Below, one piece after another: positions 19,310 to 50,899 of a stretch of DNA of 64,000 nt. How positions within the stretch are numbered: the first letter of the stretch is position 1; each line of letters begins with the position of its first letter. The notes beneath the pieces were generated by a model that did not search any database, was not told the origin of the DNA, and saw only the letters and a list, made by a program, of their open reading frames with translations. The position numbers and the translations under genes were made by a program. The stretch is from the NCBI GenBank assembly GCA_016776635.1, contig JADHSZ010000004.1, positions 16,777 through 80,776 on the forward strand, given 5' to 3'. Origin of the DNA: Alphaproteobacteria bacterium. Its GTDB lineage: Bacteria > Pseudomonadota > Alphaproteobacteria > UBA11136.

Positions 19310-19315
19310 CCGGCA

Positions 19316-27375: not shown

Positions 27376-27378
27376 CGG

Positions 27379-33836: not shown

Positions 33837-33971
33837 TAGCGGTAATGTGCGGAAAAGATTGGCGTCCCCTAGGGGAGGGGATGTCAAAACCATAAAAACC
33901 GCAGAAAACTGCGATTCTCTCCGAAGCTCCATAAGCAATTGCTACGGAATTGCTACAGTATGGAGCCACCA

Positions 33972-35603
33972 ATGTCTCATATCCAGAACCTCCAAAAACG
34001 TCCTCATGGTATCTACTATCTGAGAGTCACAATCCCTGCAGACCTCGTTGAGAGATTTGGCTGCAAAGAAATTACACGTAGTCTGGAGACAAAACGTCTC
34101 AGCCGTGCTCAAAGACTGGCGACACTCATCAAGGTCGAAACGTGGAAGGTTTTCTCTATGGCCAGGAATGATACGAAGCTGACTCAGGATGAACTGAAGG
34201 CTGTTGCCAGGCGATTTTTTGAAAAAACCCTCGCCCAGGCTGAGGCTGACCGGTTGAGCCAATCCCTTAAAAAGAATGAGGCACAACATATCCTCGACCA
34301 TATAGCTGAAATGGAATCAAATCTTGATCGGTGGATTGGACAAAATCAGTTAAGCCAGGCTTCCGAACAAATAGATGAAATCTCCCAGACCGAGGGAATC
34401 TCGCTAGATCAGGACAGCGAAGAGTATCGACAACTCGCACACTATGTTCTCCGTGCCCTGAAGGACATTCAGACCATCCTTTATGATCGAACAGCGGGTG
34501 ATTTTGATTCAGGACCGAGAGATTCTCTGTTCCAGGAAGAGCCGTTATCCGCTCCTCCACCCAAAAATCATCCCTCAGGCACCTCTATCTGCCTTGATGA
34601 GCTTATCAAACGATTCCTCAATGAGCATAAGGACGTCTGGAAACCGAAGACACTGGAAAAATACACGGCCAATCTGGATTTTGCTCGCCAGACCCTTAAT
34701 GGACAGATTCCCGTTGCATCGATCGAGCGTTCTCACATACGGGAAGTTAAAGAAATTCTGCAAAAACTCCCCGCTGATTGGGCCAAGAAATACCCTGACA
34801 TGAGTAGTCATGAGGCAGCTTCTCGCTCCGAAAGAGCCGGTGAAAACCCCATGAAGCCCGGCTCTGCCAATGCCTATCTTGGAACCTTATCCAGCTTGTT
34901 CTCCTGGGCGGATAAACAGGGCTTTTACGAAGGAAATCCTGCCTCAGGCCTTAGAGTTCCTGATCCCGTCCGGGCAGAAGACAAGCGTCATCCTTTTCAG
35001 ATCGACCATCTCCAGACCATCTTTCATGCCCCTATCTATACAGGCATGAAATCTGAACGTTTATGGGACCAATCCGGCGAAACCATCGTAAAAAACTACC
35101 GCTACTGGTTGCCTCTGGTCGCCCTCTTCACTGGGATGCGCTTAGGAGAGATAACGGGCCTCAAACCTCAACACATCAAGGAAACTTCGGATTCACATGT
35201 TATTGAGGTCGTAGCGGCCAAGACCAAGGCGGGTATAAGGATCGTTCCTATTCACCCTATCCTTCTCGATTGTGGGTTCCTGGCACATATTGCAGCCATG
35301 GAGGGCAAGGAAGACGTATTCGAGGGCGCGTCACCAAAACCATTCAGCAAACATTTCCGCCGTTTCCTGAACAGCCTAAAAATTTCCGATCCCCATCTTG
35401 TATTTCATTCTTTCCGTCATACATTTACTGATGAGTTGAGAGCCGCAAGGATTGAAGAGCCTGTGGCAAAAGCTTTGTTAGGACATTCGGACGGATCGGT
35501 AACCAGTCAATATGGTAGGGGTTACCCTGTTGAGGTTCTCTCCGAGGCTGTAGCAAAAATCCGTTATGATGGGCTGGATTTGGCCCATCTAATGAAGCCT
35601 TAA
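33972..35603 (+). CDS. int: Tyrosine-type site-specific integrase (P4-like)
   Basis: C-terminal catalytic region HSFRHTFTDELRAARIEEPVAKALLGHSDGSVTSQY with the R..HxxR..Y signature. Confidence 0.85.
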   Translation: MSHIQNLQKRPHGIYYLRVTIPADLVERFGCKEITRSLETKRLSRAQRLATLIKVETWKVFSMARNDTKLTQDELKAVARRFFEKTLAQAEADRLSQSLKKNEAQHILDHIAEMESNLDRWIGQNQLSQASEQIDEISQTEGISLDQDSEEYRQLAHYVLRALKDIQTILYDRTAGDFDSGPRDSLFQEEPLSAPPPKNHPSGTSICLDELIKRFLNEHKDVWKPKTLEKYTANLDFARQTLNGQIPVASIERSHIREVKEILQKLPADWAKKYPDMSSHEAASRSERAGENPMKPGSANAYLGTLSSLFSWADKQGFYEGNPASGLRVPDPVRAEDKRHPFQIDHLQTIFHAPIYTGMKSERLWDQSGETIVKNYRYWLPLVALFTGMRLGEITGLKPQHIKETSDSHVIEVVAAKTKAGIRIVPIHPILLDCGFLAHIAAMEGKEDVFEGASPKPFSKHFRRFLNSLKISDPHLVFHSFRHTFTDELRAARIEEPVAKALLGHSDGSVTSQYGRGYPVEVLSEAVAKIRYDGLDLAHLMKP

Positions 35604-35708
35604 CATATTGATATTTTTTCTGGTTTGGAGGGAGGCCTTTTTTGGCCATCTATTCCTTCAGACCCACAGTTCGATAAACCAAAATTGATTTTTCAAAATG
35701 GATAACAA

Positions 35709-37037
35709 ATGCCATATGACGATGACTATTCAGAACCAAACATAGAAGATTCCCTCAGCGAACAGCAGCATGAAAGAGGCCAAGAGCTAGACTTCTCCGA
35801 ACCTCTGGATATTCATCTCACAACCACCTCACCTCAGTTTTTAGGGGCCGTTGAGCTATTGCTCAGCCAGCTTCGTCAGACTGAGGCCGCAAGGATAGGT
35901 AACCTGGGTAAGATGCGACAGGCTCTGACCATGGTGCTGGCCAACTTGTATCACAATCATGCTCTGCATCCGGATCGCTACACCGCTTATGCCAGAAGCC
36001 CTTCTCGCTATTCCGTAATCCCTCGCTATAACAGGCTCGATATCAAATGGACGCCTGTAAGACGTGTTGCCGATGGGCTTGGGGAGTTAGAGTATGCAGA
36101 ACTTGTCCCGGGTTTCTTCAATCACGATTGGGGGAGAGGGAAACTATCACGCATAAAGGCAACCCAACCGCTCATTAACTTCCTCGAACAGCAAGCCATC
36201 ACTTTCGACATGATCAGGCCTGCTCCGGATGAAGAGGTCATCATCCTCAGGGACCAGGACAAGAAAGACATCGACTACAAGGACACACCTGAAATCAGGC
36301 GAATGAGGGAATCACTGCTTGCCTATAATTCCCACATCGAAGAGGCGGAGATTTTCCTCTCACCAGATTGCGAAGCTCAAATGGCTTCGGCTTCGATATT
36401 CATAAATTACAACAAGAAAAGATCGCGCAGAATCTTTAATCGGGAATCTTTCGATCAAGGAGGCCTTTTCTATGGCCCATGGTGGCAAAACATACCGAAA
36501 CATCTTCGCAAACACATCCTCATCAATGGCAACCCCACTGTGGAACGTGATTACAGCGCGATGCACATTCATCTCCTCTATGGAATGGAGGGGCTAAATT
36601 ATTGGGATTTTTTTGAGGAAAACGATGACCCTTACTTTCTGCCAAATCAGCCTGCAGGTGTAAGAGATTTCATGAAGAAGGTTTTCTGGACTGCTGTTAA
36701 TACCGAAAGCTCTACTAAGGCTAAGCTATCTCTGTTTGACAAGTATGGTCTGAACGAAGCTTACAGGGGTATGGATATCTATGGCCTCATAGATGCTTTC
36801 AAAGAGAAACATAGCCGTATCAGCCATAATCTCTTCACGTGCATTAGCCGCGAACTACAAAACAAGGGGTCTGGAATTTCTGAATTTGTAATGATGTCTC
36901 TGATGGACGAGGGCATTATCGCTCTCAACATACATGACAGCTTCATCGTGGAAACGAACCACAAAGAGATTTTAGATCAAAGGATGCATGAAGCTTTTTT
37001 GAATTTAGAGCTTCCTTCAATCCCAAATATTCATTGA
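35709..37037 (+). CDS. Island hypothetical protein, possible HUH-type rolling-circle replication initiator
   Basis: 442 aa, AT-rich codon usage. SAMHIHLLYG contains a His-hydrophobic-His motif; Tyr-rich segment downstream (KYGLNEAYRGMDIYGL). Inference only. Confidence 0.35.
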   Translation: MPYDDDYSEPNIEDSLSEQQHERGQELDFSEPLDIHLTTTSPQFLGAVELLLSQLRQTEAARIGNLGKMRQALTMVLANLYHNHALHPDRYTAYARSPSRYSVIPRYNRLDIKWTPVRRVADGLGELEYAELVPGFFNHDWGRGKLSRIKATQPLINFLEQQAITFDMIRPAPDEEVIILRDQDKKDIDYKDTPEIRRMRESLLAYNSHIEEAEIFLSPDCEAQMASASIFINYNKKRSRRIFNRESFDQGGLFYGPWWQNIPKHLRKHILINGNPTVERDYSAMHIHLLYGMEGLNYWDFFEENDDPYFLPNQPAGVRDFMKKVFWTAVNTESSTKAKLSLFDKYGLNEAYRGMDIYGLIDAFKEKHSRISHNLFTCISRELQNKGSGISEFVMMSLMDEGIIALNIHDSFIVETNHKEILDQRMHEAFLNLELPSIPNIH

Positions 37038-37340
37038 TTTCAATATATTAAGATTATTTATGTAAAAACCAAGTAAACCTTGATGCCCTACATTATATAA
37101 TACATACCCTGTTACTAGAACATTTTTTACTTATTAAGTGTTTCACCAGTGTTTATAAGCATCATCAGAATAGAGATTTGTCGTATTGCAAATACGATTT
37201 TCCTAGGAAAACTTGGGTTATCAGGCCTACCCTTTTTAAAGGAAAAAGTATGATCTAAGACCAGATAATACGGTTATGACATGGGAACAGTCATGCTCCA
37301 ATGGCGCAGCAATAATCGTAAATTCTGAGGGATAATAATT

Positions 37341-37928
37341 ATGCAACTCAACATAGACGAAAACAAATTGGGGATTGTCGCGGGAATATTATTCTGGATT
37401 ATTGTTGCCCCCATGGCATGGGACAGTGTCTCGCCAAGCTATGAATGTCCCCAAAATCCTCCCTGTCAATCATACGAGATGGTAGAGGTAGAGGATACGG
37501 GCAGCAAAATTACAGTAGTATTATTTACTACAGCCGCAGCTTTCGGAATATATGAGATGTTCCCGCTGGTGTTTTTTCAATCGATTGGCTGGGTCTTTTC
37601 GATGTTTTCTTCCCGACCTCCAGATGACATGACCCCTGGCTTTGGTGATTGTTATTATGATCCCACTATCGCCTCTGAATTGTTGGGTTTTAAGGAACCT
37701 GCTTTGATTAAACTTTTAGAGAAGGGAACACTCCGCGGCAGAAAAGACAGTTCCGGCAACTGGGAAGTTGATTTGGTTGAGGGCACATCCAATGTTGCAA
37801 TCGCCGCATACAAAATGGATCAAAGTGAGTCTGCCATTTATGAAAAATTGGAGTCTGGAGATTTACAGGGATATAAATTACCAAATGGAAAATGGCGAAT
37901 TATAAATAATTCCAATCCCAAATTATGA
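37341..37928 (+). CDS. Island hypothetical membrane-anchored protein with C-terminal excisionase/MerR-like HTH
   Basis: N-terminal transmembrane helix. C-terminal ASELLGFKEPALIKLLEKGTLRGRK...GYKLPNGKWRI resembles excisionase-family DNA-binding domains. Confidence 0.4.
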   Translation: MQLNIDENKLGIVAGILFWIIVAPMAWDSVSPSYECPQNPPCQSYEMVEVEDTGSKITVVLFTTAAAFGIYEMFPLVFFQSIGWVFSMFSSRPPDDMTPGFGDCYYDPTIASELLGFKEPALIKLLEKGTLRGRKDSSGNWEVDLVEGTSNVAIAAYKMDQSESAIYEKLESGDLQGYKLPNGKWRIINNSNPKL

Positions 37929-38242
37929 CAAACCAAGCATTAGGAAAGAATAGACCCATAAAATGCCTCCAGGATGCCCCCAGATTGATGGCATCTATTC
38001 TTATGGGGCATAGCAGTCTAGGCCTTCTGATGCGAGTCCTCGGCGCTCTGACAGCGATGCGCCCCTATTCAAGGTCAGAGCTAGGACATATCTATATCTG
38101 CTGTTGACCATAAGCGAACATTGAGGGCGGTTTGAGTAGCCCTTAACAAGATTTTCACCTCAAAGAACTTGCCTTTATTTCTGGATAAATCATCCGAAAT
38201 CCGTCTTAAAATGAACCGCCGGTAAGACGAGGAGGAAAATCA

Positions 38243-39526
38243 ATGCTTTTTCGCATCATAATACTTTCAATTTTTTTTCTACCCCCCTTTTGGGGATCAA
38301 ATGTTTTAGCCGCTGACACAGAAAAAATTTTTGAAGAGGCCGCCAATTACACGGTGAAAATCAATGCAAGAATACAGGATGCTTTTATCGAGGATGAGCC
38401 AGGCTCAACCGAAGGAGCAGGGTTTGTTGTCGATATAGACCGTGGGTGGATCATCACAAACGCCCACATAGTTGGATGGTCCCCCTCTAAAGTAACAGTA
38501 ACTTTCATTGATGGATCAACGGCAAAAGCAAGAAAAATTTATGTTGATCCCTCTACACACAGAGACATAGCCGTATTAGCCATAAACAAAAACTCTGCCC
38601 CTGACGATTTGGTTGCAGCACCATTGGACTGTGATCAATGGCCAGCTACAGGACATCCTGTTGGGGCCTATGGCCATCCGTATGGATTTGAATACACGGG
38701 AACCCAGGGAATCATTTCAGGGATATCAGAAGAAGACTCAAGCTTATTGGTGGATGCTGCCATTAATCCTGGTAATTCAGGAGGCCCACTTCTCAGTTTA
38801 GATACAGGAAAAGTAGTCGGAATTAACACCTCATCTGTCGATGATGAATATGATCAAAATACAAATTTTTCTGATCCAATATTTTTTTCCTGTGACATCC
38901 TCGATCTCCTAAGGGACGGCATTGACCCTTCACCACCAAAATTTCCCGTAATGTTCCTGGGACAGTCCCTGATCGTAGCCAAAAACAATCTCTCAAAGGA
39001 GGCATTGGACCTGAAACCTGACGATGAAATCATGGGGGTAAAAGGGTATGACGGCTCAATATATAATTTGTCTGATTTGTTCTATGCCCTTCGTGGCAAC
39101 TATGAAAATTTCACCCTGATAATCAGAAGAGGAGACAATGAAATAGAAATTCCTGGCCATCTTCAGCCGGAACCCCTTGTTATCGATCGCAAGGGGATAA
39201 AATTTTCAGGAATACTCATTGGTAGAGGGCCAATCTTCGACAACTCGGAAATCATTAAAGCAGAAAAATTACCGGTCATACACAAGGTTGCTCCGGGTTC
39301 TCTGGCTGAAGAGAATGGCTTCCAAGCCGACAATATCATCTTAGCTGTTGATGGCAGACAATATACGAACCTTCAAATTTTGTATGATTATCTAGATAAA
39401 AGGCTTAAAGAAAAACAGTCTGTAACATTTAAAATGGTAACTAAATCATCGTCAGATTGGGCCTTTTTTGACTATGGTAAAAGTGAATTGGAGATTGAAA
39501 ATCTAGAAATGATTTCAGCCAGGTAA
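38243..39526 (+). CDS. Secreted trypsin-like (S1/DegP-like) serine protease
   Basis: Signal peptide. Catalytic triad context TNAHIV, RDIAVL, GNSGGPLL. C-terminal PDZ-like region. Confidence 0.7.
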   Translation: MLFRIIILSIFFLPPFWGSNVLAADTEKIFEEAANYTVKINARIQDAFIEDEPGSTEGAGFVVDIDRGWIITNAHIVGWSPSKVTVTFIDGSTAKARKIYVDPSTHRDIAVLAINKNSAPDDLVAAPLDCDQWPATGHPVGAYGHPYGFEYTGTQGIISGISEEDSSLLVDAAINPGNSGGPLLSLDTGKVVGINTSSVDDEYDQNTNFSDPIFFSCDILDLLRDGIDPSPPKFPVMFLGQSLIVAKNNLSKEALDLKPDDEIMGVKGYDGSIYNLSDLFYALRGNYENFTLIIRRGDNEIEIPGHLQPEPLVIDRKGIKFSGILIGRGPIFDNSEIIKAEKLPVIHKVAPGSLAEENGFQADNIILAVDGRQYTNLQILYDYLDKRLKEKQSVTFKMVTKSSSDWAFFDYGKSELEIENLEMISAR

Positions 39527-39545
39527 GGAAGTTCATTGAAAACCG

Positions 39546-40193
39546 TTACTTTGAACCCTTCTTCTTGGTTGGACGTGATTTTGGCTTGGCCTTTCTAACC
39601 TTCTGAGGCTTGGCCTTTTTCGTAGTCGTTTTTCCTTTGTCCGCTGATTTAGTGCCTTCTTTTTGTTTAGTCCTTTTACCCTTACCGGCTGATTTCGTGC
39701 CAACCTTTTTCTTTATTTTTTTACCTTTTTCGCTCGCTTTCCCGGAAGTTTTTTTCCTGGTCTGTTTGCCTTTTTTTGGCACCGGTTTTTGTTTTCTGGT
39801 GGCTATGATTTCAGGTTCCTGTTCAGGTGAACCTGTATCCGGACCTGGAAGAAACATCATTTCCGTCGGCATGCTTATGCCTGAACTAAATAAATACGCT
39901 AATTCCTGATATTCAACACTAGATTTGTCCGCATGTCTTGGTTGCAGCTCTTCCTTTAGCTGCCTCAGCCAGGCCTTTCCGTTCATTTTAACGAGAAGAT
40001 TAAACCCATCACTTAAGTCCATCGCATAGCTCGTCTCCATCCGTTTTTGAGGGACGGACGCTTTCATTAATTCCCGTTGGGTGGCCATTGACATGATTAC
40101 ATGAAAGCCCTGTGGGGCAGCGCTTGGTTCACTCTCAACAAAAATATTAGCCATTATCAAATCTTTAAAAAAAATGCCCCCACCGCCACCCAT
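39546..40193 (-). CDS. Island hypothetical protein with histone-H1-like Lys-rich C-terminal tail
   Basis: 215 aa. The last roughly 80 residues are KKGKQTRKKTSGK...KKAKPQKVRKAKPKSRPTKKKGSK. Confidence 0.4.
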   Translation of the reverse strand: MGGGGGIFFKDLIMANIFVESEPSAAPQGFHVIMSMATQRELMKASVPQKRMETSYAMDLSDGFNLLVKMNGKAWLRQLKEELQPRHADKSSVEYQELAYLFSSGISMPTEMMFLPGPDTGSPEQEPEIIATRKQKPVPKKGKQTRKKTSGKASEKGKKIKKKVGTKSAGKGKRTKQKEGTKSADKGKTTTKKAKPQKVRKAKPKSRPTKKKGSK

Positions 40194-40532
40194 TCAACAT
40201 ATCTGATGTCAGAAAATGGAAGGAGGAGACTTCCACTTGAGCATTTAAAAAAAATTATATTTCTGACAATTCGATGATCTAACCCCGGCACAGGAGGAGA
40301 CTGAAGGCATGTTCCATCAGTTGATATGAGAAAAAGGTAATAATTCTTATCAATGTTCATTGCAGGTTGTTCCTATGGGCTGGACATTTTGTATTCTTGG
40401 CTTTGCTGATCTAGAGATATTTATCCAATCCGGTGTAGCAAACTCAGCAATTCGGCCTGCTTTGTTCTGGCTTGATCTCTTTGTGTTTTATGGCCCACCA
40501 CCATAAGATGAATATCCTCTGGGAGGAAAGCA

Positions 40533-40766
40533 ATGGAAGCAATTAAGGATTTTTTTGGATACCTGTTTGGGTCAGCAGTAGGCTTAGCACTAATGGGTTC
40601 GATGTCTCTTGGGATGGCTTATTGGGTCTGGATGGCCATTCAATTAGGCAGCTTTCTCATGTTCGCAGCACTGTTTTTCCCACCCACGATGATCATCGCA
40701 GCACCCACAGGATTATACTCTTTTATATTTGGAGCGCCTGAGTGGGTGATAAATATGTTCGGTTGA
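40533..40766 (+). CDS. Small hydrophobic protein (77 aa, two transmembrane helices)
   Basis: ORF preceded by GGGAGGAAAG. Hydrophobic throughout. Confidence 0.25.
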   Translation: MEAIKDFFGYLFGSAVGLALMGSMSLGMAYWVWMAIQLGSFLMFAALFFPPTMIIAAPTGLYSFIFGAPEWVINMFG

Positions 40767-41048
40767 TACCACTAGACTCAGCGACTAGACCCTAGACCGA
40801 GCAGCAAACGCCTACCTCAAAATTTATTATAGAAATTTCTGAGCCACCTTTCCTTCTCATAAAGAGGCCACCCCTGCCCCCCTGGTGCCCCCTTCTTCGG
40901 CTTATCCCTGTGAAAAAACTTCCATAGCAAAGAGGCCCCCCGCACCGTTAAGAAATTACTACAGAATTGCTACGGTAAGGTGTAATATAGGGGTGCTTTT
41001 GGGCTTCGGAAAGCCGCAGAAAACTGCATAAAACAGCCGTTTTAGTAG

Positions 41049-41124
41049 TGGCGTCCCCTAGGGGATTCGAACCCCTGTTGCCGGCGTGAGAGGCCGGTGT
41101 CCTAGGCCTCTAGACGAAGGGGAC
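41049..41124 (-). tRNA. tRNA-Glu (anticodon CUC)
   Basis: Reverse complement GTCCCCTTCGTCTAGAGGCCTAGGACACCGGCCTCTCACGCCGGCAACAGGGGTTCGAATCCCCTAGGGGACGCCA folds as a cloverleaf and is nearly identical to E. coli tRNA-Glu apart from the anticodon loop (CTCTCAC). CCA is encoded. Confidence 0.85.
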
Positions 41125-42739: not shown

Positions 42740-43174
42740 ATGATCAAGACTTTAATCACCGCATTTTCCTTCATCGTCCTTGTCGGCTCTTCGAGTATCG
42801 CCGCGGAAAGCCCTTAAAGGACTGTTGGCGGGCTCAACGAACAGTGGAACGCCGCCTTTAATTCCGGTGACGCAGAAACGCTGGCCAACCTCTATGCCAA
42901 TAACGGTCAGGTTGTGCCCTCCGGCAGCAATGCCGTCAACGGCAGCGAACAAATCCGCGCCTTTTTCCAGGCGGGGATAGATAAGGGACTGCACGATCAT
43001 CAAATCAGGATTCTACAAGTGCGGCGCGAAGGGAATCTGCTGATCCAGACCTCGCTCTGGTCAGCCAAAGCCCTAGCGGACGGAGAGACCAAGGTCTTCT
43101 CGGGCAATCTGGTCGCCATCCATAAACTCGGCGACGACGGAACATGGCGCATGATTCAGCACACCTGGAACTGA
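42740..43174 (+). pseudogene. SnoaL-like/DUF4440 (NTF2-fold) protein with signal peptide, interrupted by an in-frame TAA at 42815-42817
   Basis: MIKTLITAFSFIVLVGSSSIAAESP-stop-RTVGGLNEQWNAAFNSGDAETLANLYANNGQVV... continues in the same frame to 43174. Confidence 0.5.
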
Positions 43175-43218: not shown

Positions 43219-44607
43219 TTAAGGCGCGGAGCCGAGCACGAATTCCCCTATGGAGGTTTCGGTCCAGGGGCTGATGCCGGTGGCCTCGGCGAAGAGACGG
43301 GAATCCCCGGTGCCGGTGCCGCAGGGCGCGAGCCCCATATCGGCGGCCACCAGATACAACACCTCGGTCACCACCCCGGCATTGGTGAGGGTGGTACGAT
43401 AGGCCATGCCCTGGTATTTCCAGGCGAAGCGCGGCATACGGGTGGTAATCACGATTATCATGTCGGGGAACGGCCCCTCGGCCATACCCATGGCGGCTGA
43501 CGCGCGCCTGACGATTTTATCCACCACCTTTTCCGTCCCCTCCAGAGCCACCAGGGCATGGGCGAGACCGTCATAATGATAGAAAAGGGGTTCCATATCC
43601 GCCACCCGGCGCACCGCAATATAAAACTCCAACTCGTTGATAGAGCCGCCCGCGGGATAGGGCCGGGACAAAACATCCTGCAGAGAGCTTTCCTTCACCT
43701 CCTTGATCCGCGCCACGCGATAGAGAAATTCCCCAAGGGTTTCCAAATTCATGGGTTCGGGGCCGGATTCGCGCACCGACTTGCGGTTCTCCATGACGGA
43801 AAGCAGCGGATGGCTGTCGATGCTGCCGTCCTCGAGGTTGGGCTTGGGCAGGTCTATCACCGTCCCCGGCATGGTGGGTTTGAGTGCCGGGGCCGAGGGA
43901 AACGCATCCTTGAAACGGTAGGTGCCGCCGACAATGTCGGTTTCCGTATTGTTGCGGCTCCATTCATGAATCAGCCGGTCCTGAAATTCCCAACAGCGCC
44001 GGTCCAGGTCTTCTTCCTCCTCCGCCGGCTCCAGGAACCCCGCATAAAAGAGCAGTTCCCCCGGCCCACCGGCGGAAACGGGCTTTCCGGCCTCACCACC
44101 GCCATCGAAAAGAAATCCCGAGAAAGCCTTCGCCGCCCCAGGAAGAACCGTGATGCGGCAGGGGGTTTCGCCCGATTGCAGGACCATGTCTTCCCCGTCG
44201 CGGCGCAGATAGGCGAAGCGGGAAAAGCGCCATGCGTCTTTGGGAAGTCCTCCTGAATAAAAGGCGAAGGAATTGGAGGGGCTGACGGCCACCGCCAGGT
44301 CCTTGCCGTCGCGGCGCAGGACCAGTTCCAGCAGGCGCGGACGGCACATACGTTCGAGATAATAGGACAGTGCCTTTGCGGATTCCTCTCCGCCATCACC
44401 ATCTCCGGCGGCGAGTTTCCTTAAATGCTCAAGGGTTGCGCCATCACCGAACAGAGCCAGCAACGCCTCGGCAATACCTTCGGACTCGGGCTTGAAGCGC
44501 AGGGTTTTCCAGTCCGGAACCGTAATGGCGATATGATCGCCATCGCGCGCCACGGAGTCCACCTCCGCGCAGAACCGCCAGATAACTTCCGTTTTGGCCG
44601 ATGCCAT
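43219..44607 (-). CDS. SagB/ThcOx-type dehydrogenase (nitroreductase fold) with long N-terminal extension
   Basis: C-terminal approximately 200 aa: MENRKSVRES...PYPAGGSINELEFYIAVRRV...APCGTGTGDS fits the FMN-dependent SagB-type dehydrogenase pattern. Confidence 0.65.
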   Translation of the reverse strand: MASAKTEVIWRFCAEVDSVARDGDHIAITVPDWKTLRFKPESEGIAEALLALFGDGATLEHLRKLAAGDGDGGEESAKALSYYLERMCRPRLLELVLRRDGKDLAVAVSPSNSFAFYSGGLPKDAWRFSRFAYLRRDGEDMVLQSGETPCRITVLPGAAKAFSGFLFDGGGEAGKPVSAGGPGELLFYAGFLEPAEEEEDLDRRCWEFQDRLIHEWSRNNTETDIVGGTYRFKDAFPSAPALKPTMPGTVIDLPKPNLEDGSIDSHPLLSVMENRKSVRESGPEPMNLETLGEFLYRVARIKEVKESSLQDVLSRPYPAGGSINELEFYIAVRRVADMEPLFYHYDGLAHALVALEGTEKVVDKIVRRASAAMGMAEGPFPDMIIVITTRMPRFAWKYQGMAYRTTLTNAGVVTEVLYLVAADMGLAPCGTGTGDSRLFAEATGISPWTETSIGEFVLGSAP

Positions 44608-44625
44608 GCCGTCACCTCATCACTT

Positions 44626-45681
44626 TTAAAGAAAGAAGGGGATAGGATTGAGTTCGGATTCCTTGTTCGGCTTGTCGAGCCAGCCCATCTTCACCGGCAC
44701 GTCGTAAAGACGGCCCGGCGCGAACCGCGCCCAGAAATGCCGTATGCCGGGCACCACCACCCGGGCGCAGGAAAAATCAACTTCCGGCCGGGAGTGATCG
44801 AACACCAGCATTTCGAGTCCCTGTTCCTCGAATTTCCCGCGCGCGTAGTCCACATCATCGGCCAGGGTCGCGCCGTTAAAACTGGGCATATCCCCGAGGG
44901 CCACGGCGGGAAGCGCATCGGGCTTGAGATAAGTCTGGTTCTCCAGCGTGGCGGTGCGGAACCAGTCGGCAATGGCCCCCTCGGGCTCGGTATCCCCTTC
45001 CTCGGCTTCGAGGAATCCGGTTTCCAGTTCCAGCATCTGGTTCAATTCACTGTAAGCCCGGTTCAAGGCCACCAGGGGGTCGAGATGGGCGCCCAGCCCG
45101 AACATAATGCTCTTCCCGTCACGATGGCCCACGGCGATAATCACCGGAATGCCGAAATCCTGGGTCAGGTCGAGGGCGTAAAAGGCAAGCCCCAACTCTC
45201 CGTAATGGCGCTCCATGCGCCGCAGGAACGGCAACTCCACCGAAGAGGCGTCCTCGGTGAGCACCGGGCGTTCGCGGATTTCCAGTTCACTGGTGACCTC
45301 CCAGCGGTTGCCGGGCAGCGGGCGGGCGGCGAACTGGCGGGTGAAGCGGGCCTCGTGGGTGACCAAGCCGAGGCCGCCCAGGAGGTCGATCCCGAACCAC
45401 TCGCCGCCTTCCTTGGCGTGCCAGCGGTACCAGGCCTCGAACAGGGCGAACTGATCTCTGCGCAACACCCAGCGCACGGAAATCCGGCTCGGCACGCTCG
45501 TGAACCGACGCCGCTGCCGCGCCGGTCCCGCTTCCATCTCGGTGCGCAGAATGGCCTCGCCGGGATGGACGCCGTAGCCCTCGATGGAGGGCAACGGCAG
45601 GGTGGCGGGCCAGGAGATAGACACGGGGGATCCTTGTATTCCATGGACATCAATCCATATATGAGCTACAATGTAGCCCAT
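44626..45681 (-). CDS. Chimeric ORF: gpM-like phage minor tail protein (N-terminal approximately 140 aa) fused in frame to the C-terminal half of a YcaO-domain protein (truncated YcaO)
   Basis: N-terminus WPATLPLP...AKEGGEWFGIDLL...RWEVTSELEIRE is shared with repeats at 46235-46540 and 47151-47385. C-terminus has YcaO-like DLTQDFGIPVIIAV, GLGAHLDPLVALNRAYSELNQ, ARVVVPGIRHFWARF and terminal NPIPFF. Confidence 0.5.
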   Translation of the reverse strand: MGYIVAHIWIDVHGIQGSPVSISWPATLPLPSIEGYGVHPGEAILRTEMEAGPARQRRRFTSVPSRISVRWVLRRDQFALFEAWYRWHAKEGGEWFGIDLLGGLGLVTHEARFTRQFAARPLPGNRWEVTSELEIRERPVLTEDASSVELPFLRRMERHYGELGLAFYALDLTQDFGIPVIIAVGHRDGKSIMFGLGAHLDPLVALNRAYSELNQMLELETGFLEAEEGDTEPEGAIADWFRTATLENQTYLKPDALPAVALGDMPSFNGATLADDVDYARGKFEEQGLEMLVFDHSRPEVDFSCARVVVPGIRHFWARFAPGRLYDVPVKMGWLDKPNKESELNPIPFFL

Positions 45682-45683: not shown

Positions 45684-45956
45684 ATGGAGGTTCAAATCAT
45701 GAGCACCGTTGTTCGCGCACGCATCGACGAGAAGGTGAAGGACGATGCCGCCGCCGTGCTGGCTTCGATCGGGCTCACCGTTTCCGACGCCTTCAGGTTG
45801 ATGATGGTGCGCATCGCCACCGAAAAGCGGCTGCCTTTCGAACCGCTGGTACCCAATGCTGAAACCATCGAGGCCATGAAGGCGGCGCGGCGCGGCGACG
45901 TGATCACCGTCGGCGACGTAGAAGACCTGATGGCCGACCTGCATGCGGACGATTAG
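45684..45956 (+). CDS. RelB/DinJ-family antitoxin
   Basis: About 85 aa. RARIDEKVKDDAAAVLASIGLTVSDAFRLMMVRIATEKRLPF is typical of DinJ. Confidence 0.75.
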   Translation: MEVQIMSTVVRARIDEKVKDDAAAVLASIGLTVSDAFRLMMVRIATEKRLPFEPLVPNAETIEAMKAARRGDVITVGDVEDLMADLHADD

Positions 45957-46224
45957 ACGCACCGGAGCCTTCAAGCGCGACTATAAGCGCGAGAATAAGG
46001 GCCGGCACGGCAAGACGCTCGACGCTGGCCTGTCGAAGGTAGTGGCCATGCTGGTTGCCGATGAGCCGCTGCCAAAGCGTTACCACGACCATTCTCTGGC
46101 CGGGGAATGGAAGGACCACCGGGACTGCCATATTAGGCCCGACTTGGTGCTGATCTACCGCAAGCCGGACGCCGAAAACCTCGATCTGGTACGCCTCGGC
46201 TCACACGGCGAACTTGGCCTATGA
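45943..46224 (+). CDS. YafQ/RelE-family toxin (mRNA interferase)
   Basis: 93 aa. FKRDYKRENKG...LAGEWKDHRDCHIRPDLVLIYR. Overlaps the antitoxin stop. Confidence 0.75.
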   Translation: MRTIRRTGAFKRDYKRENKGRHGKTLDAGLSKVVAMLVADEPLPKRYHDHSLAGEWKDHRDCHIRPDLVLIYRKPDAENLDLVRLGSHGELGL

Positions 46225-46240
46225 CCTTTTCTCGCTACCG

Positions 46241-46540
46241 ATACGCCCCCGCCGCCGGGTTAAGACCGTAGCGGCGCTCCAGGGTCAGCACCAAGCCCTC
46301 GCCGCCTTCCTTGGCGCGCCAGCGGCGCCAGGCCTCGAACAGGGCGAACTGGTCCTGGCGCAACACCCAGCGCACGGAGATGCGGCTCGGCACCTGGGTA
46401 TAGCGTCTGCGCTGCCGCGCCGGCCCGGCTTCCATCTCGGTGCGCGGAATGGCCTCGCCGGGATAGACGCCGTAGCCGTCGATGGTGGGCAGCGGCAAGG
46501 TGGCGGGCCAGGTGATGGGCGTGGGATTGTTCAACTCCAT
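46241..46540 (-). repeat. Junction repeat B: gpM 5' part fused to tape-measure 3' end (...AKEGGEGLVLTLERRYGLNPAAGAYR*)
   Basis: About 85-90% DNA identity to 45401-45640 and 47155-47385. Ends with the same about 45 bp as the tape-measure 3' end (47991-48050). Confidence 0.7.
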
Positions 46541-46605
46541 CCCTCTAGATCATATACGGCAATGCCGTATGTTTTTCTTGTGATGTATCCGGCAATGCCG
46601 TATGA

Positions 46606-46887
46606 TTGCGTATGCAGATCGAATTTGACCTCGACAAGGACGCGGCCAACCAAGCCAAGCACCAGGTTTCACTTTCCTTTGGCGCTCGAGTGCTGGCGGA
46701 TACCAACCGGTTGGATGTTCTTGATGTGCGGTTTGACTATGCCGAAGAACGCTTCGTTTCCTATGGCATGGTCGATAAGCGGATTTGGGTCTGTGTATTC
46801 ACCCCGCGCGGCGACATGTACCGCGTTATCAGTGTGAGGAAAGCCAATGACCGCGAAACACAAAGATACCACGACACCCCCCGGTGA
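46606..46887 (+). CDS. BrnT-family toxin (DUF497)
   Basis: 93 aa. FDLDKDAANQAKHQVSLSFGARVLAD...RFVSYGMVDKRIWVCVFTPRGDMYRVISVRKANDRE. Confidence 0.7.
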   Translation: MRMQIEFDLDKDAANQAKHQVSLSFGARVLADTNRLDVLDVRFDYAEERFVSYGMVDKRIWVCVFTPRGDMYRVISVRKANDRETQRYHDTPR

Positions 46888-47137
46888 ACCGGATGCCGAC
46901 GCGCCGCTCACTGACGACGAATTCCAGCGGGGATACACCGCAATGCTGGCCCGTCGAACTCGTGCTGAAACCGGCCTTTCACAGCGGGCTTTTGCCGAGC
47001 GCTACGGCATTCCAGTGGCCTCTTTAAGAGACTGGGAACAGGGCCGCCGGACGCCCGACAATGCCACGCAAAGCTACCTGCGAGTTATCGCCAAAATGCC
47101 TGACGATGTGGCAAAGGTTCTGCACGACGCAGCCTGA
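46847..47137 (+). CDS. BrnA-family antitoxin (HTH)
   Basis: 96 aa. LSQRAFAERYGIPVASLRDWEQGRRTPDNATQSYLRVIAKMPD. Overlaps the BrnT 3' end. Confidence 0.7.
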   Translation: MTAKHKDTTTPPGEPDADAPLTDDEFQRGYTAMLARRTRAETGLSQRAFAERYGIPVASLRDWEQGRRTPDNATQSYLRVIAKMPDDVAKVLHDAA

Positions 47138-47154
47138 CGTTTCTTAATGCTCAA

Positions 47155-47385
47155 TCAATAACTCCCCGCCGCCGGGTTGAGACCGTAGCGGCGCTCCAGG
47201 GTGGGAGCCAGTCCCTCGCCGCCTTCCTTGGCGCGCCAGCGGCGCCAGGCCTCGAACAAGGCGAACTGGTCCCGGCGCAGGACCCAGCGCGCGGAGATGC
47301 GGCTCGGCGCCTGGGTGTAGCGCCGTCGATGGTGGGCAGCGGCAGGGTGGCGGGCCAGGAGATGGTCATGGGATTGCTAAATCCA
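47155..47385 (-). repeat. Junction repeat C: gpM 5' part with internal roughly 75-bp deletion/frameshift plus tape-measure-3'-end-like terminus
   Basis: caataactccccgccgccgggttgagaccgtagcggcgctccagggtgggagccag... is the same start as the tape-measure end at 47991. Encodes MTISWPATLPLPTIDG... out of frame. Confidence 0.65.
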
Positions 47386-47442
47386 AGGGAAAATGGCATT
47401 CTTTGCCAAATTATGCCATAACCACCAAGACTGGAGGCGCCT

Positions 47443-47676
47443 ATGGCCACGATGAATGTTTCTCTGCCAGATCCCATGCGGGAATGGGTGGAAAGCCAGA
47501 TAAAGGGCGGCAAATACGCCAATGCCAGCGATTATATTCGTGATCTCATCCGTCACGATCAGCGTCGCCTTCATGATTTAACGGCAGCGATTACCGAGGG
47601 CATGGAGAGCGGGCGCAGCCCGCGCAAGGCGGAGGACGTCATGAAGGCAGCCAAGACCCGGCTGCAAAATGGCTGA
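47443..47676 (+). CDS. ParD/CopG-family (RHH) antitoxin
   Basis: 77 aa. MATMNVSLPDPMREWVESQIKGGKYANASDYIRDLIR. Confidence 0.75.
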   Translation: MATMNVSLPDPMREWVESQIKGGKYANASDYIRDLIRHDQRRLHDLTAAITEGMESGRSPRKAEDVMKAAKTRLQNG

Positions 47677-47983
47677 CTACGTCCTTTCCAACAAAGCCGA
47701 TGCCGATCTTGACGGGATCTATGTCTATTCGTACCGGACCTTCGGCGAGGCCAAGGCCGATGTCTATTTTCTTGGCCTATGCGACGGCCTGAAAAGGCTG
47801 GCGGCCAACCCTCGCCATGGCCGTTCCCTTGACCATGTCTGGCCAGGGTTGTTCTGTGATCGTTGCGCTCGCCACATCATCTTCTACACGATCGAAGAGG
47901 ACGGCATATTCGTTGTGCGTATTTTGCACGATTCCATGGACGCCTCGCGCCACATTGATTTGGAAGAAATGGACAGTAACTGA
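47669..47983 (+). CDS. ParE/RelE-family toxin
   Basis: 104 aa. Overlaps the ParD stop. Typical ParE length and RelE/ParE-fold context. Confidence 0.7.
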   Translation: MADYVLSNKADADLDGIYVYSYRTFGEAKADVYFLGLCDGLKRLAANPRHGRSLDHVWPGLFCDRCARHIIFYTIEEDGIFVVRILHDSMDASRHIDLEEMDSN

Positions 47984-47989: not shown

Positions 47990-50899
47990 TCAATAACTCC
48001 CCGCCGCCGGGTTGAGGCCGTAGCGGCGCTCCAGGGTGGGAGCCAGCCCCTCGCCACGCCCGATGTTGCGGGAAAGCCGTCCCTCCACCTTCTCAACCAC
48101 GATGTCCAGGCCGAGGTTGCCGTTGCCGTCCCGGCGTGTTTGAACCTTGGCTTCCGTTCCCGGCGCCCGGTTGTCCACGTTGACGGTAACCTTGACCTCT
48201 GGTTTTTCCCCCAGTCCCGCGCCCAGCACCCGCATCTGGCCGGGCGTGAACACGGTCTCGCCGCGCGTGGCGATGATGGGGACCTCGGAACCGATGACAC
48301 CGCCGGAATGAAACCGGGGGGCGGAATCGAACACCGCCGGATCAACGGAACGGGCGGCAAGATGGTCGCTCCCAATGACGCCGCCGGCATGGGCGATCTG
48401 TACCGGCCCGCCGCCGGCGTCTTGAATGGTCCCGCTACCCCCGAACAGACTACTGCCGATGGAGCCGAACACGTTCTCCAGGAGGCCGCTGAAGGGCTTG
48501 ATGACGGCCATGCGGTAAGCGGCGCGCAGCGCCTCCTCGGCGATGGTGTTGAACAGGTCGGCGGCGCTGAACTTGCCGGTGGCCGCCCATTGGACGAAGG
48601 CGTCCTCGCCGGCCTTCAACGACCGGGTCGTGACCTGTTCGAACTGCTTGGCGGCATTGGACGCCTCGTCGGCGTAATCGCGCAGGGCCCGGATCACGCC
48701 CGCCGACCATTCCCGGCTGGCCCGCAGCATGCGGTCATGGGCGTTCTCGGAGGCCCGTGCGAAGGTCTCCTGGGCAATCGCTCCCTCGTCCAGCAGCCGG
48801 TTTAAATCCGCGATCTCGGCCTTGTAGGCTTCCTCCGCGGTGCGGAGGCTTTCCGTGAGGGCGCGGCCCTTCTCCTTGAGCTTGGCGGCATCGGTCTCGG
48901 CTTTGTTGCGGGCCTCCATGGCCTGTTGCTCGTCGAACAGGGCGCCGGCCAGTTCCCGCACCTGGCTCCGCTCGGCATCGGCCGCCTCCGCCGAGAGTCT
49001 CCGTAATGCCTGGGAGACGAACCGCTGCCGGTCGGTCATGGCGAGCGCGTCATGCTCGGCTCGAAGCCCTTCGATGATCTTGCGGTTGGCTTCCGTGATC
49101 CGCTCAGTTGTCTCCTGTTCCCTTGCCGCCAATCTCGCCAGCTTGGCGTCGCGGACCGCCGCCGCTTGGGTTCTCAGGGCATCCACTTGGGCTTGGTTGC
49201 TTTCGTCCGGGGCCAGCAACGCCTCCACGTCCTTGGCCAGCCGTTCGTACTCGGCCCGGATGCGGTCGGCCCCATCATGGGTCAGGGTGAACAGTTGCCG
49301 CTGCAAGTCCTTCTCAATTTGCGCGACCCGCTTGGCCCGGTCCTGAGCCGCCTTGATGTCCACTTCGACGGAACCGGAGGGGCCGCTGGGCTTGATCGCC
49401 GGGCCAGGCTTGCCTTCCTTGTCCCTCTGCATCCACGCCAGCTTTGCCGCCCATTGCCGGTAGACGGTTGTCTTTTCCTCCAGCTGGCGTTCCAGGGCCA
49501 CCTTGCGGCCCCAATCGAGTGCGTCGTCCAGGAACCCGACGTCGCCCAGTTCCTTCAGTTCATGGGCGATCTCCCGGAGCTCGGCGCGGCGTTCCTCGAC
49601 GATTGCCCGGGTGCTCCCGAGGCTCAAACCTTCGAAGTCGTAATCCCCTCCGGCCAGGAGCTTGAGTTGTTCGTAGGCGACGCCGGCCTGGCCGGCGAGT
49701 CCGGCAAGATCCTTGACCGCGGCGGCGACGCCGGGCGCCAGGTCCTCGCCGATGGACCGCGCGAGGGATTTGATGTTGTTCCACATCAATTCCGTCTGGT
49801 TGTTCAGGCTTTCGAAGGCTTTCGCCGCTTCCTCGTTCAATGCGGTGGCGTTTTGGGTCTCGCGGTTGGCAAGCTCGAGAGCTTGGGCCAGCAGGTCGGC
49901 GCGGTTCGCCAACACCGGGATGGTCTTGAGCAGACGCTGGTCAGCCAGGCCCAATGCCGCCATGGCGTCCGCCGTCGAACCGCCGGCGTCGCTGACCCGC
50001 TTCAGCCCCTCGATGAACAGGACAAAAGCCGCCGTGGAATCCTTTTGGAATAAATCCTTGATCTCTTCGCCGGTCCTGCCGGTGATCTTCGTGAGGATGT
50101 CCAGATGCTCCCCTCCGCTACGGACGGCGGCGTCCATCATGCGCATAACCCGTCCGATGGAGGTGCCCGCCACCTCCGACTTGACGCCGACGGCGGCCAG
50201 CGCAGCGGCCAGAGCCGTGGCCTGGGCGGAACTCACCCCGAAGACGGCGGCGCCGCGGGCGATCTCCGTGGCCATGTCGGCGATCTGTCTTTCCGTGGCG
50301 GCGAAGTTGTTGCCCAGCGCGACGATCACCGAGCCCAGCACATCGACCTTGCCCATGGCCTCGCCGGTGATATTGAGAATGCGCGCCAAGGCCATGGCCG
50401 CGTCATTGCCGCTGAGGTCCGTCGCCGTGCCCAGCTTGGCGACGGTCTCGGTAAACTTCAGGATGTTGGACGCCCCCTTCACCCCGAGCTGACCGGCGCT
50501 CTGGGCGATGGCCAGCAACTCGTCGGTGGCCACGGGCAAGCGTTTGGAAAGGGCGTCGATGTCCTTACCGAGGGACGCCAGTTCGCTCCCGGACAGGTTC
50601 GCGGTCTTGCCGACGCCGATCAGCCCGGCCTCGAAATCGGCGTACAGCTTCACCATCTCGTGCAAGCCGCGGACGGCCCCGCCGGCGGCGATCACCCCGT
50701 AAAGGAGCTTCATGCGCCGGCCCAGGGATTGAGCGCGGTCGGAGAGCCTGGAGAGCCCCCGGGACGCTTTGCCTCCCGCCGTCTCGATCTTCTTGAGGGA
50801 CCTGTCGCCGGTCCGGCCCACATCCTTGAGCTCGGCCTTGACCTTGCCGCCGCCGTCTACCGTGAGGCGGATGGCGTAGGTGTGTTTGGCCCTGGCCAT
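47990..50899 (-). CDS. Phage tail tape measure protein
   Basis: 969 aa, Ala/Glu-rich coiled-coil throughout. Lies downstream of the G/GT chaperones. C-terminus ...GEGLAPTLERRYGLNPAAGSY is shared with the junction repeats. Confidence 0.85.
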   Translation of the reverse strand: MARAKHTYAIRLTVDGGGKVKAELKDVGRTGDRSLKKIETAGGKASRGLSRLSDRAQSLGRRMKLLYGVIAAGGAVRGLHEMVKLYADFEAGLIGVGKTANLSGSELASLGKDIDALSKRLPVATDELLAIAQSAGQLGVKGASNILKFTETVAKLGTATDLSGNDAAMALARILNITGEAMGKVDVLGSVIVALGNNFAATERQIADMATEIARGAAVFGVSSAQATALAAALAAVGVKSEVAGTSIGRVMRMMDAAVRSGGEHLDILTKITGRTGEEIKDLFQKDSTAAFVLFIEGLKRVSDAGGSTADAMAALGLADQRLLKTIPVLANRADLLAQALELANRETQNATALNEEAAKAFESLNNQTELMWNNIKSLARSIGEDLAPGVAAAVKDLAGLAGQAGVAYEQLKLLAGGDYDFEGLSLGSTRAIVEERRAELREIAHELKELGDVGFLDDALDWGRKVALERQLEEKTTVYRQWAAKLAWMQRDKEGKPGPAIKPSGPSGSVEVDIKAAQDRAKRVAQIEKDLQRQLFTLTHDGADRIRAEYERLAKDVEALLAPDESNQAQVDALRTQAAAVRDAKLARLAAREQETTERITEANRKIIEGLRAEHDALAMTDRQRFVSQALRRLSAEAADAERSQVRELAGALFDEQQAMEARNKAETDAAKLKEKGRALTESLRTAEEAYKAEIADLNRLLDEGAIAQETFARASENAHDRMLRASREWSAGVIRALRDYADEASNAAKQFEQVTTRSLKAGEDAFVQWAATGKFSAADLFNTIAEEALRAAYRMAVIKPFSGLLENVFGSIGSSLFGGSGTIQDAGGGPVQIAHAGGVIGSDHLAARSVDPAVFDSAPRFHSGGVIGSEVPIIATRGETVFTPGQMRVLGAGLGEKPEVKVTVNVDNRAPGTEAKVQTRRDGNGNLGLDIVVEKVEGRLSRNIGRGEGLAPTLERRYGLNPAAGSY

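Follow-up and report, generated by a model that had tools for sequence, protein, structure and literature searches.

An in-frame chimera of a phage tail gene and a YcaO gene beside an intact SagB gene: a probable deletion scar in a grounded prophage

The DNA analysed here (the window) is a stretch of 64,000 nt from an alphaproteobacterial contig of the UBA11136 lineage (JADHSZ010000004.1). A prophage tail module on the minus strand gives way to an ORF of mixed phage and YcaO origin, followed by a SagB-type dehydrogenase gene, and three toxin-antitoxin cassettes on the plus strand separate that ORF from the tape measure gene. The features, in coordinates of the window, are as follows.

43219-44607 (-): SagB/ThcOx-type FMN dehydrogenase, intact, 462 aa (TIGR03605, above cut-off)
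44626-45624 (-): chimeric ORF, 332 aa from the native GTG; the mechanical ORF runs to 45681
44626-45246 (-): YcaO-derived part, the final 206 codons of a gene for a fused TOMM cyclodehydratase; C-terminus NPIPFFL
45244-45252 (-): proposed deletion junction, ...LTED-A/SS-VELPF, with the crossover within or beside GAC GCC
45247-45624 (-): phage-derived part (phrog_384), the first 126 codons of a gene for a ~159-aa tail protein, located where lambda has gpM
45684-46224 (+): RelB/YafQ toxin-antitoxin cassette (Pfam; hotspot allele C), antisense to the phage genes
46235-46540 (-): chimeric repeat copy 2, a 101-aa ORF
46606-47137 (+): BrnT/BrnA-like (HTH) toxin-antitoxin cassette (Pfam; hotspot allele B)
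47154-47381 (-): chimeric repeat copy 3, which shares the junction of copy 2 between the 159-aa and tape measure genes but is frameshifted by the internal loss of 70 nt
47443-47983 (+): ParD/ParE toxin-antitoxin cassette (Pfam; hotspot allele A)
47990-50899 (-): tape measure protein, 969 aa (PHROGs), the last intact gene of the prophage tail module

The chimeric ORF and its SagB neighbour

The native start of the ORF is placed at the GTG at 45624, because the 19 codons upstream of it are not part of the phage gene. The 332-aa product is 100% identical to a database protein of the same length (P0001), and the NCBI label of the ORF is "YcaO-like family protein". Residues 1-126 are the first 126 of the ~159 residues of a conserved phage protein, and residues 127-332 form the C-terminal end (206 residues) of a TOMM-type cyclodehydratase of ~765 aa in which leader-binding and YcaO domains are fused. 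An earlier note on this DNA had proposed that a gpM-like phage gene is fused in frame to the 3' half of a YcaO gene, and both halves do match their own models and homologues. Full-length homologues in unrelated genomes would have spoken against a chimera, and a search of 1.84 billion representative proteins returned no other protein that matches both halves. One candidate second fusion of similar size (P0392) proved to be a plain partial YcaO. The 332-aa architecture is confined to one lineage, in which all copies are 100% identical, and the two homologue sets are separate: the YcaO-type matches are proteins of 700-800 aa that align at their C-terminal end only, and the phage-type matches are standalone proteins, nearly all of 157-165 aa (639 clusters, 80 viral loci).

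In the phage-derived part, residues 21-150 of the mechanical ORF match phrog_384 ("virion structural protein" in PHROGs) with an E-value of 2e-39, and the part is 85% identical to a viral homologue (L010:3340-3816) over 131 aa. In 66 of ~78 viral relatives, the 159-aa gene lies within ~50 nt of the end of the tape measure gene; in the remaining 12, a cargo cassette alone intervenes.

The description of this part as gpM-like holds for gene position and, weakly, for fold, but not for sequence. As with lambda gpM and its T1 homologue, the gene directly follows the tape measure gene, and DUF1833 and NlpC/P60 genes further downstream in the phage relatives correspond to the lambda L and K positions. 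However, lambda gpM has 109 aa rather than 159 and shows no sequence similarity: the phage minor tail M model (Phage_min_tail, PF05939) gives no sequence match, neither the ORF nor 37 intact homologues give a Pfam hit of this kind even at E<=10, a PDB profile search for gpM likeness was negative, and hhalign gives a probability of 0.2%. An AlphaFold model, of only moderate confidence (pLDDT 71), is matched by Foldseek to the lambda Tail tip protein M (8iyk, 109 aa) with E 0.019 and TM-scores of 0.35 and 0.48, the latter by target length. The best fold match is the 163-aa chain C of the Sf11 phage tail (E 2e-5, TM 0.60), and the T1 structure 9l9p_H is also matched.

The C-terminal part matches both YcaO models, as the earlier note had anticipated. 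Residues 148-314 of the mechanical ORF align with positions 160-325 of the 325 in the Pfam YcaO profile PF02624 (E 1e-29, 104 bits against a cut-off of 25.7 bits), and TIGR03604 is matched at positions 159-376 of 377 (E 3e-25, 88.9 bits), with a score below the full-length cut-off of 219, as expected since the remnant is a fragment. Positions 1-158 of TIGR03604 are absent, and the conserved motifs AGKG...ERYS and ELVERD in the N-terminal part of homologues have no counterpart in the chimera. The N-terminal ATP/Mg-binding half is missing, as was proposed, but the loss is larger: the piece covers half of the YcaO domain and just the C-terminal 27% of an ancestral protein that has ~765 aa in relatives, so that ~555 N-terminal residues are lost, including the fused leader-peptide-binding domain (TIGR03882), and probably an AurF-like neighbour as well. 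What remains is 48% identical to residues 549-765 of a 765-aa relative (L090) and departs at only two strongly conserved columns. A tblastn search of the window with the full-length protein of a relative gives no further match, and no leader-binding partner, fused or separate, was found.

The adjacent SagB gene is intact, again as the earlier note had it. The protein scores 138 bits against TIGR03605 (cut-off 78.4), aligns over 97-99% with homologues of 450-461 aa, and keeps 55 of 58 strongly conserved columns, which is within the range of other members.

At the junction, phage homology extends through LTEDA and YcaO homology begins at (D)A-SSVELPF. GC content and GC3 are 69.8% and 88.9% on the phage side versus 60.4% and 75.4% on the YcaO side; the GC3 of the phage part (0.89) is like that of the tape measure and capsid genes, and that of the YcaO part (0.75) is close to that of SagB (0.72). 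Together with the phrog_384 and YcaO matches, this step supports the proposal that phage DNA and host DNA meet here inside a biosynthetic gene.

Relatives on either side of the junction

No intact or prophage-free allele from this lineage was present in the databases, and three distant loci (L090, with its near-duplicate L091, L093 and L094) were therefore used as stand-ins; the ancestral arrangement given below is a reconstruction from these distant relatives. A search of genome contigs with the SagB protein found no prophage-free relative, and the nearest YcaO and SagB sequences in the protein databases, apart from the locus itself, are only 46-51% identical, with no match above 47% for SagB or above 51% for YcaO. 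In L090 and L093, a YcaO gene encoding 762-765 aa lies directly upstream of SagB, accompanied by a divergent AurF-like gene, and the YcaO proteins score above cut-off for both TIGR03882 and TIGR03604. The genes are rearranged in L094. The locus in the window resembles these TOMM clusters with a fused cyclodehydratase in that its C-terminal 206 residues match YcaO/SagD models to the conserved C-terminus and SagB is directly downstream, with a gap of 18 nt as compared to 7-8 nt in L090 and L093. It differs in the missing ~555 N-terminal residues and in the AurF-like diiron oxygenase gene, which is found beside the YcaO-SagB pair in all three loci examined but is absent from the window. Neither the locus nor the relatives yielded a precursor gene. 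Conserved ORFs of 57-59 aa near SagB in the relatives are no obvious precursor candidates: they are hydrophobic and membrane-like, and are absent from the window.

On the phage side, the tape measure protein is 88% identical to that of L010 over all 969 aa, and the head, tail tube and tape measure genes of the prophage still look intact. In intact phage relatives, the 159-aa gene is followed by DUF4376, DUF1833 (minor tail) and NlpC/P60 genes, none of which is detected in the window by tblastn. The prophage thus resembles grounded or cryptic prophages that decay by deletion (PMC6379469) in that its right end and tail-tip genes are lost, its toxin-antitoxin cargo is kept, and the deletion probably reaches a flanking host gene. 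The in-frame phage-host chimeric ORF and the intact appearance of the head, tail tube and tape measure genes set it apart.

Stacked toxin-antitoxin cassettes at a cargo hotspot

The three stacked type II toxin-antitoxin cassettes are a more unusual feature of the locus than the fusion, which is ordinary genome decay. The ParE, BrnT and YafQ toxins and the RelB antitoxin cover nearly their full Pfam profiles, ParD matches positions 7-63 of 81, and the partner of BrnT matches general HTH models only, all above cut-off. The RelB/YafQ and ParD/ParE cassettes are colinear with the single-cassette phage loci L038 and L021, respectively. These and other relatives define a fixed site in the gap that separates the tape measure gene from the 159-aa gene. 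It holds differing antisense cargo in 12 of ~78 relatives, including ParDE, RelB/YafQ, Bflower and HEPN/RES-like genes. Several of the cargo genes have no family assignment, and PADLOC returned no matches for them. The alphaproteobacterial siphophages that use this site at the tape measure/gpM position as a cargo hotspot form a widespread family. Accessory-gene (moron or defence) hotspots such as those of P2-like phages (PMC9122126) are similar in their fixed site and varied cargo, but here three alleles stand in tandem, split by two identical chimeric junctions.

Copy 2 starts with ~75 codons from the 5' end of the 159-aa gene and continues in frame into the final 66 nt of the tape measure gene (21 codons and the stop). 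Both repeat copies have an identical junction, at nt 224 in the 159-aa gene and nt -66 in the tape measure gene. A pattern scan for this junction gave no matches in viral contigs, and the sole match in metagenome contigs (L092) is the same element. Hotspot alleles can thus stack in tandem via short microhomology.

Origin of the fusion

With a probability of roughly 85%, the ORF has no function and is the scar of a deletion in a defective ("grounded") prophage of the lambda type. In the ancestral prophage, the tape measure gene would have been followed by toxin-antitoxin cargo, the 159-aa gene at the gpM position, the tail-tip genes and the right end, and the host DNA beyond it would have carried a TOMM-type RiPP locus with an AurF-like gene, the ~765-aa fused leader-binding/YcaO cyclodehydratase and SagB. 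One illegitimate recombination, with microhomology of at most a few bases around GACGCC, would then have fused the 159-aa gene, at codon 126, to the YcaO gene at a position ~206 codons from its 3' end, and removed everything between: the tail-tip module, the right end of the prophage, the 5' three quarters of the YcaO gene and probably the AurF-like partner gene. The join would be in frame by luck (a 1 in 3 chance), giving the 332-aa chimeric ORF. A single event is the favoured reading, though several rearrangements in some other order may lie behind the locus. The event may have been recent, as the YcaO remnant and SagB show little decay.

Both the prophage and the RiPP locus are probably disabled. 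The prophage would be unable to build a tail tip. As judged from sequence, a fragment that lacks its leader-binding domain, and of its ATP-binding domain the N-terminal half, should make no azoline, which would leave the intact SagB without a substrate; the earlier view of this RiPP system as disabled is consistent with these losses. The in-frame join and the well-conserved state of the two remnants would, on the other hand, also be compatible with a function that has been kept. The locus would then be a clean case of prophage grounding by a deletion that also destroys a neighbouring RiPP biosynthetic gene. Genome mining by co-occurrence of YcaO and SagB would count it as a TOMM cluster, though it is predicted not to work.

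The same junction bears on the earlier proposal that the YcaO gene was truncated by the prophage itself, which implies that an insertion split it. Phage DNA does directly abut a truncated host gene, and the region is prone to integration, with a tRNA-Glu gene 2 kb away and a separate island flanked by 17-nt direct repeats. However, the phage sequence breaks off at codon 126 of a conserved structural gene and not at a phage end, the DUF4376, DUF1833 and NlpC/P60 genes that lie downstream in the close relative L010 are all missing from the window, the junction has neither an att-like repeat nor an integrase, and the other part of the YcaO gene is nowhere in the window. Insertion is therefore very unlikely; because the junction lies within a structural gene and the distal tail genes are absent, a deletion that cut the prophage and the YcaO gene together is the better explanation.

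Similarly improbable is an origin of YcaO and SagB as phage cargo, in which the fusion arose within a phage genome. The region after the 159-aa gene is variable and can hold enzymes, as in L012, which has two radical-SAM genes there, and in P0006 the domain is fused to RCC1 repeats. However, neither YcaO nor SagB occurs in any of the 80 related viral loci, no phage genes are found beyond SagB, the neighbours of the YcaO-SagB homologues examined are not phage genes (AurF-like, DUF697 and ABC-ATPase genes), and the GC3 of the pair is unlike that of the phage genes and nearer that of flanking non-phage genes.

It is also conceivable, at long odds, that the chimera and the two shorter tail-protein fragments upstream of it are kept for some benefit, for example as dominant-negative versions of the tail-tip protein that would stop related superinfecting phages from assembling tails. 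The fusion is in frame with conserved residues kept in both parts, the N-terminal part of the tail protein is still present in three copies next to the three toxin-antitoxin cassettes, and other, unrelated proteins are documented to provide defence by interfering with tail assembly (PMC11364771). However, the architecture occurs in one lineage only, copy 3 is frameshifted, and a promoter scan detected no promoter-like site on the strand of the fusion gene; across the scanned region, promoter-like and terminator-like sites do not exceed their counts in shuffled sequence. There is an equally slim chance that the stacked locus as a whole is a domesticated anti-phage module. Its three toxin-antitoxin cassettes alternate with three N-terminal pieces of the gpM-position tail-tip protein, of which two run into the tape measure C-terminus and the third into the YcaO fragment; these pieces could serve as dominant-negative decoys and poison the tail assembly of related superinfecting phages. 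On this reading, the recurrent GGCGAG junction could serve to accumulate hotspot alleles.

Finally, although the source is a metagenome assembly, an artefactual join of a phage contig to a host contig is extremely unlikely, because the identical junction recurs in at least seven independent assemblies, comprising six separately assembled ENA samples (coverage up to 73x) and one Logan assembly made with a different assembler. The upstream toxin-antitoxin array is also present in a GenBank WGS contig.

A phage gene joined to a YcaO gene

Two adjoining ORFs make up the remnant:
44626-45681, minus strand: chimeric ORF, 351 aa as a mechanical ORF, with a phage tail-gene front and a YcaO 3' part
43219-44607, minus strand: SagB ORF adjoining the chimera, 462 aa

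Both ORFs, their neighborhood and their phage and YcaO matches had been proposed in an earlier note, and are confirmed by Pfam, NCBIfam and PHROGs. The HMM check suggested there for the C-terminal part gave matches to both YcaO models: chimera residues 148-314 match positions 160-325 of 325 in the YcaO model (Pfam, E 1e-29), and residues 151-349 match positions 159-376 of 377 in the SagD model for thiazole/oxazole-modified microcins (TOMMs; NCBIfam), where the score is far under the full-length cut-off, in keeping with a fragment. Residues 21-150 match phrog_384, "virion structural protein" (PHROGs, E 2e-39). The GTG at 45624 is the start position of intact phage homologues, the database copy of the chimera (P0001) is a 332-aa version, and the 19 codons 5' of this GTG lie outside the phage gene. 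The window's counterpart is a 136.8-kb metagenome contig that carries the annotation of an alphaproteobacterial MAG, and the junction is spanned in contigs of six separately assembled ENA samples and one Logan assembly; a GenBank WGS contig has the upstream array, where the compared ORFs differ by two amino acids. The junction is not an artefact.

Each half has a set of homologues of its own. The first 126 residues matched 639 clusters; nearly all of the 120 clusters listed are 157-160 aa, with a few up to 183 aa, and the best among those listed is 90% identical. An IMG/VR scan with the phage part gave 80 loci (65-88% identity), in all but two of which the 159-aa gene comes after the end of the tape measure gene; in the two exceptions the tape measure gene is off the contig. 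The intact gene stops after 157-171 codons in relatives, mostly 159, and the chimera retains 126 of these ~159 (...EIRERPVLTEDA in the window versus ...EIRERPVLTEDALNIAL in L010, a related viral locus). Matches to the YcaO part are all TOMM-type proteins of ~700-800 aa, aligned at the C-terminal end only, with 40-51% identity. In the 765-aa protein of L090, a relative YcaO-SagB locus, residues 549-765 align to the YcaO part (48% identity), residues 180-347 contain the TOMM leader-peptide-binding domain TIGR03882, and residues 388-763 contain a complete TIGR03604, above cut-off. Because homology begins at residue 549 of 765, the window keeps only ~27% of the ancestral YcaO protein; the leader-binding domain is lost, along with the N-terminal YcaO motifs AGKG...ERYS and NGNAAGNT.EEA..QG..ELVERD, defined as conserved in an alignment of YcaO homologues. 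GC and GC3 (third-codon-position GC) also step down at the join. The phage side, at 69.8% and 88.9%, resembles the tape measure gene (66% and 84%), and the YcaO side, at 60.4% and 75.4%, resembles SagB (60.8% and 71.7%). The homologue sets and this step uphold the earlier description of a phage tail gene fused to a YcaO C-terminal part without its N-terminal half. HMMER was run exhaustively against 1.84 billion representatives and gave 4172 matches; no protein covering both halves, and so no full-length homologue in unrelated genomes, is among them. A look-alike database protein, P0392, is an ordinary partial YcaO.

The label "gpM-like" holds by position, the 159-aa gene lying directly after the tape measure gene as M does after H in lambda. 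It fails by sequence: neither the chimeric ORF nor 37 intact homologues match a tail Pfam family even at E<=10, a profile search against PDB sequences gave no match, and hhalign against lambda gpM gave 0.2% probability. By fold the likeness is suggestive, as judged from a 158-aa homologue modelled with AlphaFold (pLDDT 71). The best match of this model is in the Sf11 phage tail, to a chain of 163 aa (E 2e-5, TM 0.60). Others are a lambda tail tip chain of 109 aa (E 0.019), "Tail tip protein M" being the only 109-aa sequence in that structure entry, and chain H of the T1 tail tip, which is a sequence homologue of gpM. The phage part is treated here as a functional analogue of gpM and not a family member, and is possibly a distant structural relative.

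The 159-aa domain is also found in a natural fusion with RCC1 repeats (P0006) and embedded in a 1932-aa protein with non-contractile tail sheath domains (P0455). The viral locus L007 has two tandem tape measure and 159-aa gene sets ~9 kb apart (8469-10597, 17687-19896). The region 3' of the gene is variable in relatives too, and in the viral locus L012 (8493-12982) it has two radical-SAM genes.

A probable deletion affecting both parents

The join lies at 45244-45252, where the codons GAC GCC (D-A) are assignable to either parent; as only these are, microhomology amounts to a few bases at most. On the phage side it falls in the interior of a structural gene. L010, with a tape measure protein 88% identical to that of the window over all 969 residues, continues after the 159-aa gene with a 734-aa gene and genes for DUF4376 tail-fibre-like, DUF1833 minor tail and NlpC/P60 proteins; tblastn detected neither these nor their L012 equivalents in the window. 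Beyond SagB are a 5'-truncated DUF4440 ORF, a tautomerase, an HTH-cupin regulator, a DksA/TraR zinc-finger protein and tRNA-Glu, with no tail-like gene among them. The host side was compared with three relative loci (L090, L093 and L094; L091 duplicates L090). L090 and L093 have a 762-765-aa YcaO directly upstream of SagB and a divergent AurF-like diiron oxygenase gene, and L094 has its genes rearranged. The AurF-like gene is absent from the window.

The join is no attachment site and is most probably a deletion scar. It is most simply explained by a single illegitimate recombination, which would have taken out the tail-tip module, the prophage right end and any host DNA between, together with the AurF-like gene and the first ~555 YcaO codons; that this was a single event we infer. 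The in-frame outcome, having a one in three chance, needs no special explanation. The earlier view of a RiPP locus truncated by the prophage is thus right as to the truncated YcaO and should be corrected as to cause, since the join is inside a phage structural gene and the distal tail genes are absent; the wording should be that prophage and RiPP gene were truncated together by a deletion. Apart from this, the earlier description of the locus is largely right.

SagB is intact, as had been proposed. It matches the SagB family dehydrogenase model above cut-off (NCBIfam) and has a weak ThcOx-type match at its N-terminus. It can be aligned over its whole length with homologues of 450-461 aa, and differs at 3 of 58 strongly conserved columns (leave-one-out), within the 0-8 of other divergent members. 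The retained YcaO part differs at only two such columns. Among the phage genes, those for tape measure, tail tube, capsid, portal and terminase retain their full length. The copies available show 100% identity to one another. The intact state of the survivors fits a recent deletion, and may also be compatible with continued selection on them. The chimera has neither a complete YcaO domain nor a leader-binding partner, two defining features of a functional cyclodehydratase, and should for that reason be annotated as a pseudogene fragment.

The DUF4440/SnoaL-like ORF (42914-43174, plus strand) matches only model positions 37-107 of 107; it appears 5'-truncated, and would be a second damaged gene beside SagB. 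The nearest intact YcaO-SagB pairs (L090 4583-9374; L093 2644-7389; L094 1-7374) are 46-51% identical and all adjoin an AurF-like gene, with a DUF697 protein and an ABC-type ATPase also nearby in L090 and L093. No recognisable precursor gene was found at these three loci, and their TOMM subfamily appears uncharacterised. The window's other peptide-export or RiPP-like locus (20437-29929) encodes a protein combining an AprA-like N-terminal domain with a methyltransferase, two ABC transporters, one of which has a C39 peptidase domain, and a membrane-fusion adaptor. Nothing evident ties this locus to the YcaO/SagB remnant.

A stacked toxin-antitoxin array at a cargo hotspot

Three type II toxin-antitoxin cassettes (Pfam) separate the chimera from the tape measure stop at 47990, and are set apart from one another by two copies of one chimeric element:
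47443-47983, antisense to phage genes: ParD/ParE cassette (block A)
47154-47381: element copy 3, with a 70-nt internal deletion
46606-47137, antisense to phage genes: BrnT and HTH antitoxin cassette
46235-46540: element copy 2, with an in-frame 101-aa ORF
45684-46224, antisense to phage genes: RelB/YafQ cassette (block C)

In the element, the 159-aa gene contributes its first 224 nt and the tape measure gene its last 66 nt, with a common GGCGAG at the join. Both junctions are at the identical position, and copies 2 and 3 have common substitutions missing from copy 1, the piece of the gene inside the chimera; the junction therefore probably had a single origin followed by duplication, with cassettes probably swapped via flanking homology. 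Degenerate pattern scans found this junction in no other viral contig and in one metagenome contig, which carries the same element. Two near-identical 22-nt palindromic repeats (TATACGGCAATGCCGTATGTTT and TATCCGGCAATGCCGTATGATT, 46553-46607) just 5' of BrnT overlap a promoter-like site and are probably the operator of that cassette.

A single 0.2-0.95-kb insert occupies the tape measure/159-aa-gene site in 12 of ~78 viral relatives, with an antisense ORF in 11 of the 12; the hotspot loci named beside window 45684-47983 are L011, L014, L016, L021, L026, L034, L036, L037, L038 and L041. Cargo includes ParDE (L021, L041), RelB/YafQ (L038), Bflower and HEPN/RES-like genes, and several ORFs (134-267 aa) without family assignment. 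Block A is colinear with L021, and block C with L038. The site is therefore a hotspot for cargo in this family of phages, and the window carries three of its alleles in tandem. The YcaO-chimera deletion begins 375 nt past the last cassette. Toxin-antitoxin genes may have been retained by addiction, which could explain why decay halted there.

The locus is a grounded prophage, of the kind known to decay by deletion (PMC6379469), with a truncated version of a TOMM YcaO-SagB pair and an accessory-gene hotspot comparable to that of P2-like phages (PMC9122126); none of these is new in kind. A role of the surviving tail-protein pieces as decoys that poison assembly, a reading drawn by analogy with tail assembly interference systems (PMC11364771), is highly improbable.

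Other insertions in the prophage and its flank

The terminase large subunit (gpA; 59396-62431, minus strand) has 1011 aa versus 646 aa in a relative, with an insertion of ~363 aa that has a LAGLIDADG domain, splits the ATPase domain between AQIGG and TEAGNN, and ends ...THN followed by T; it looks like an intein carrying a homing endonuclease. A NYN-domain (predicted RNase) gene (53645-54187, plus strand), antisense in the head-tail module between the DUF6441 and tail tube genes, is probably further cargo (a moron). Finally, the 7.2-kb low-GC island at 33860-41124 (39-49% GC) is bounded by a perfect 17-nt direct repeat, TGGCGTCCCCTAGGGGA, at 33860-33876 and 41049-41065, the second copy being the 3' end of tRNA-Glu(CTC). 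The island encodes a DUF6538/tyrosine integrase (33939-35603) and a trypsin-like protease, along with several unassigned ORFs; it is an integrative element in its own right, 2 kb away from SagB.
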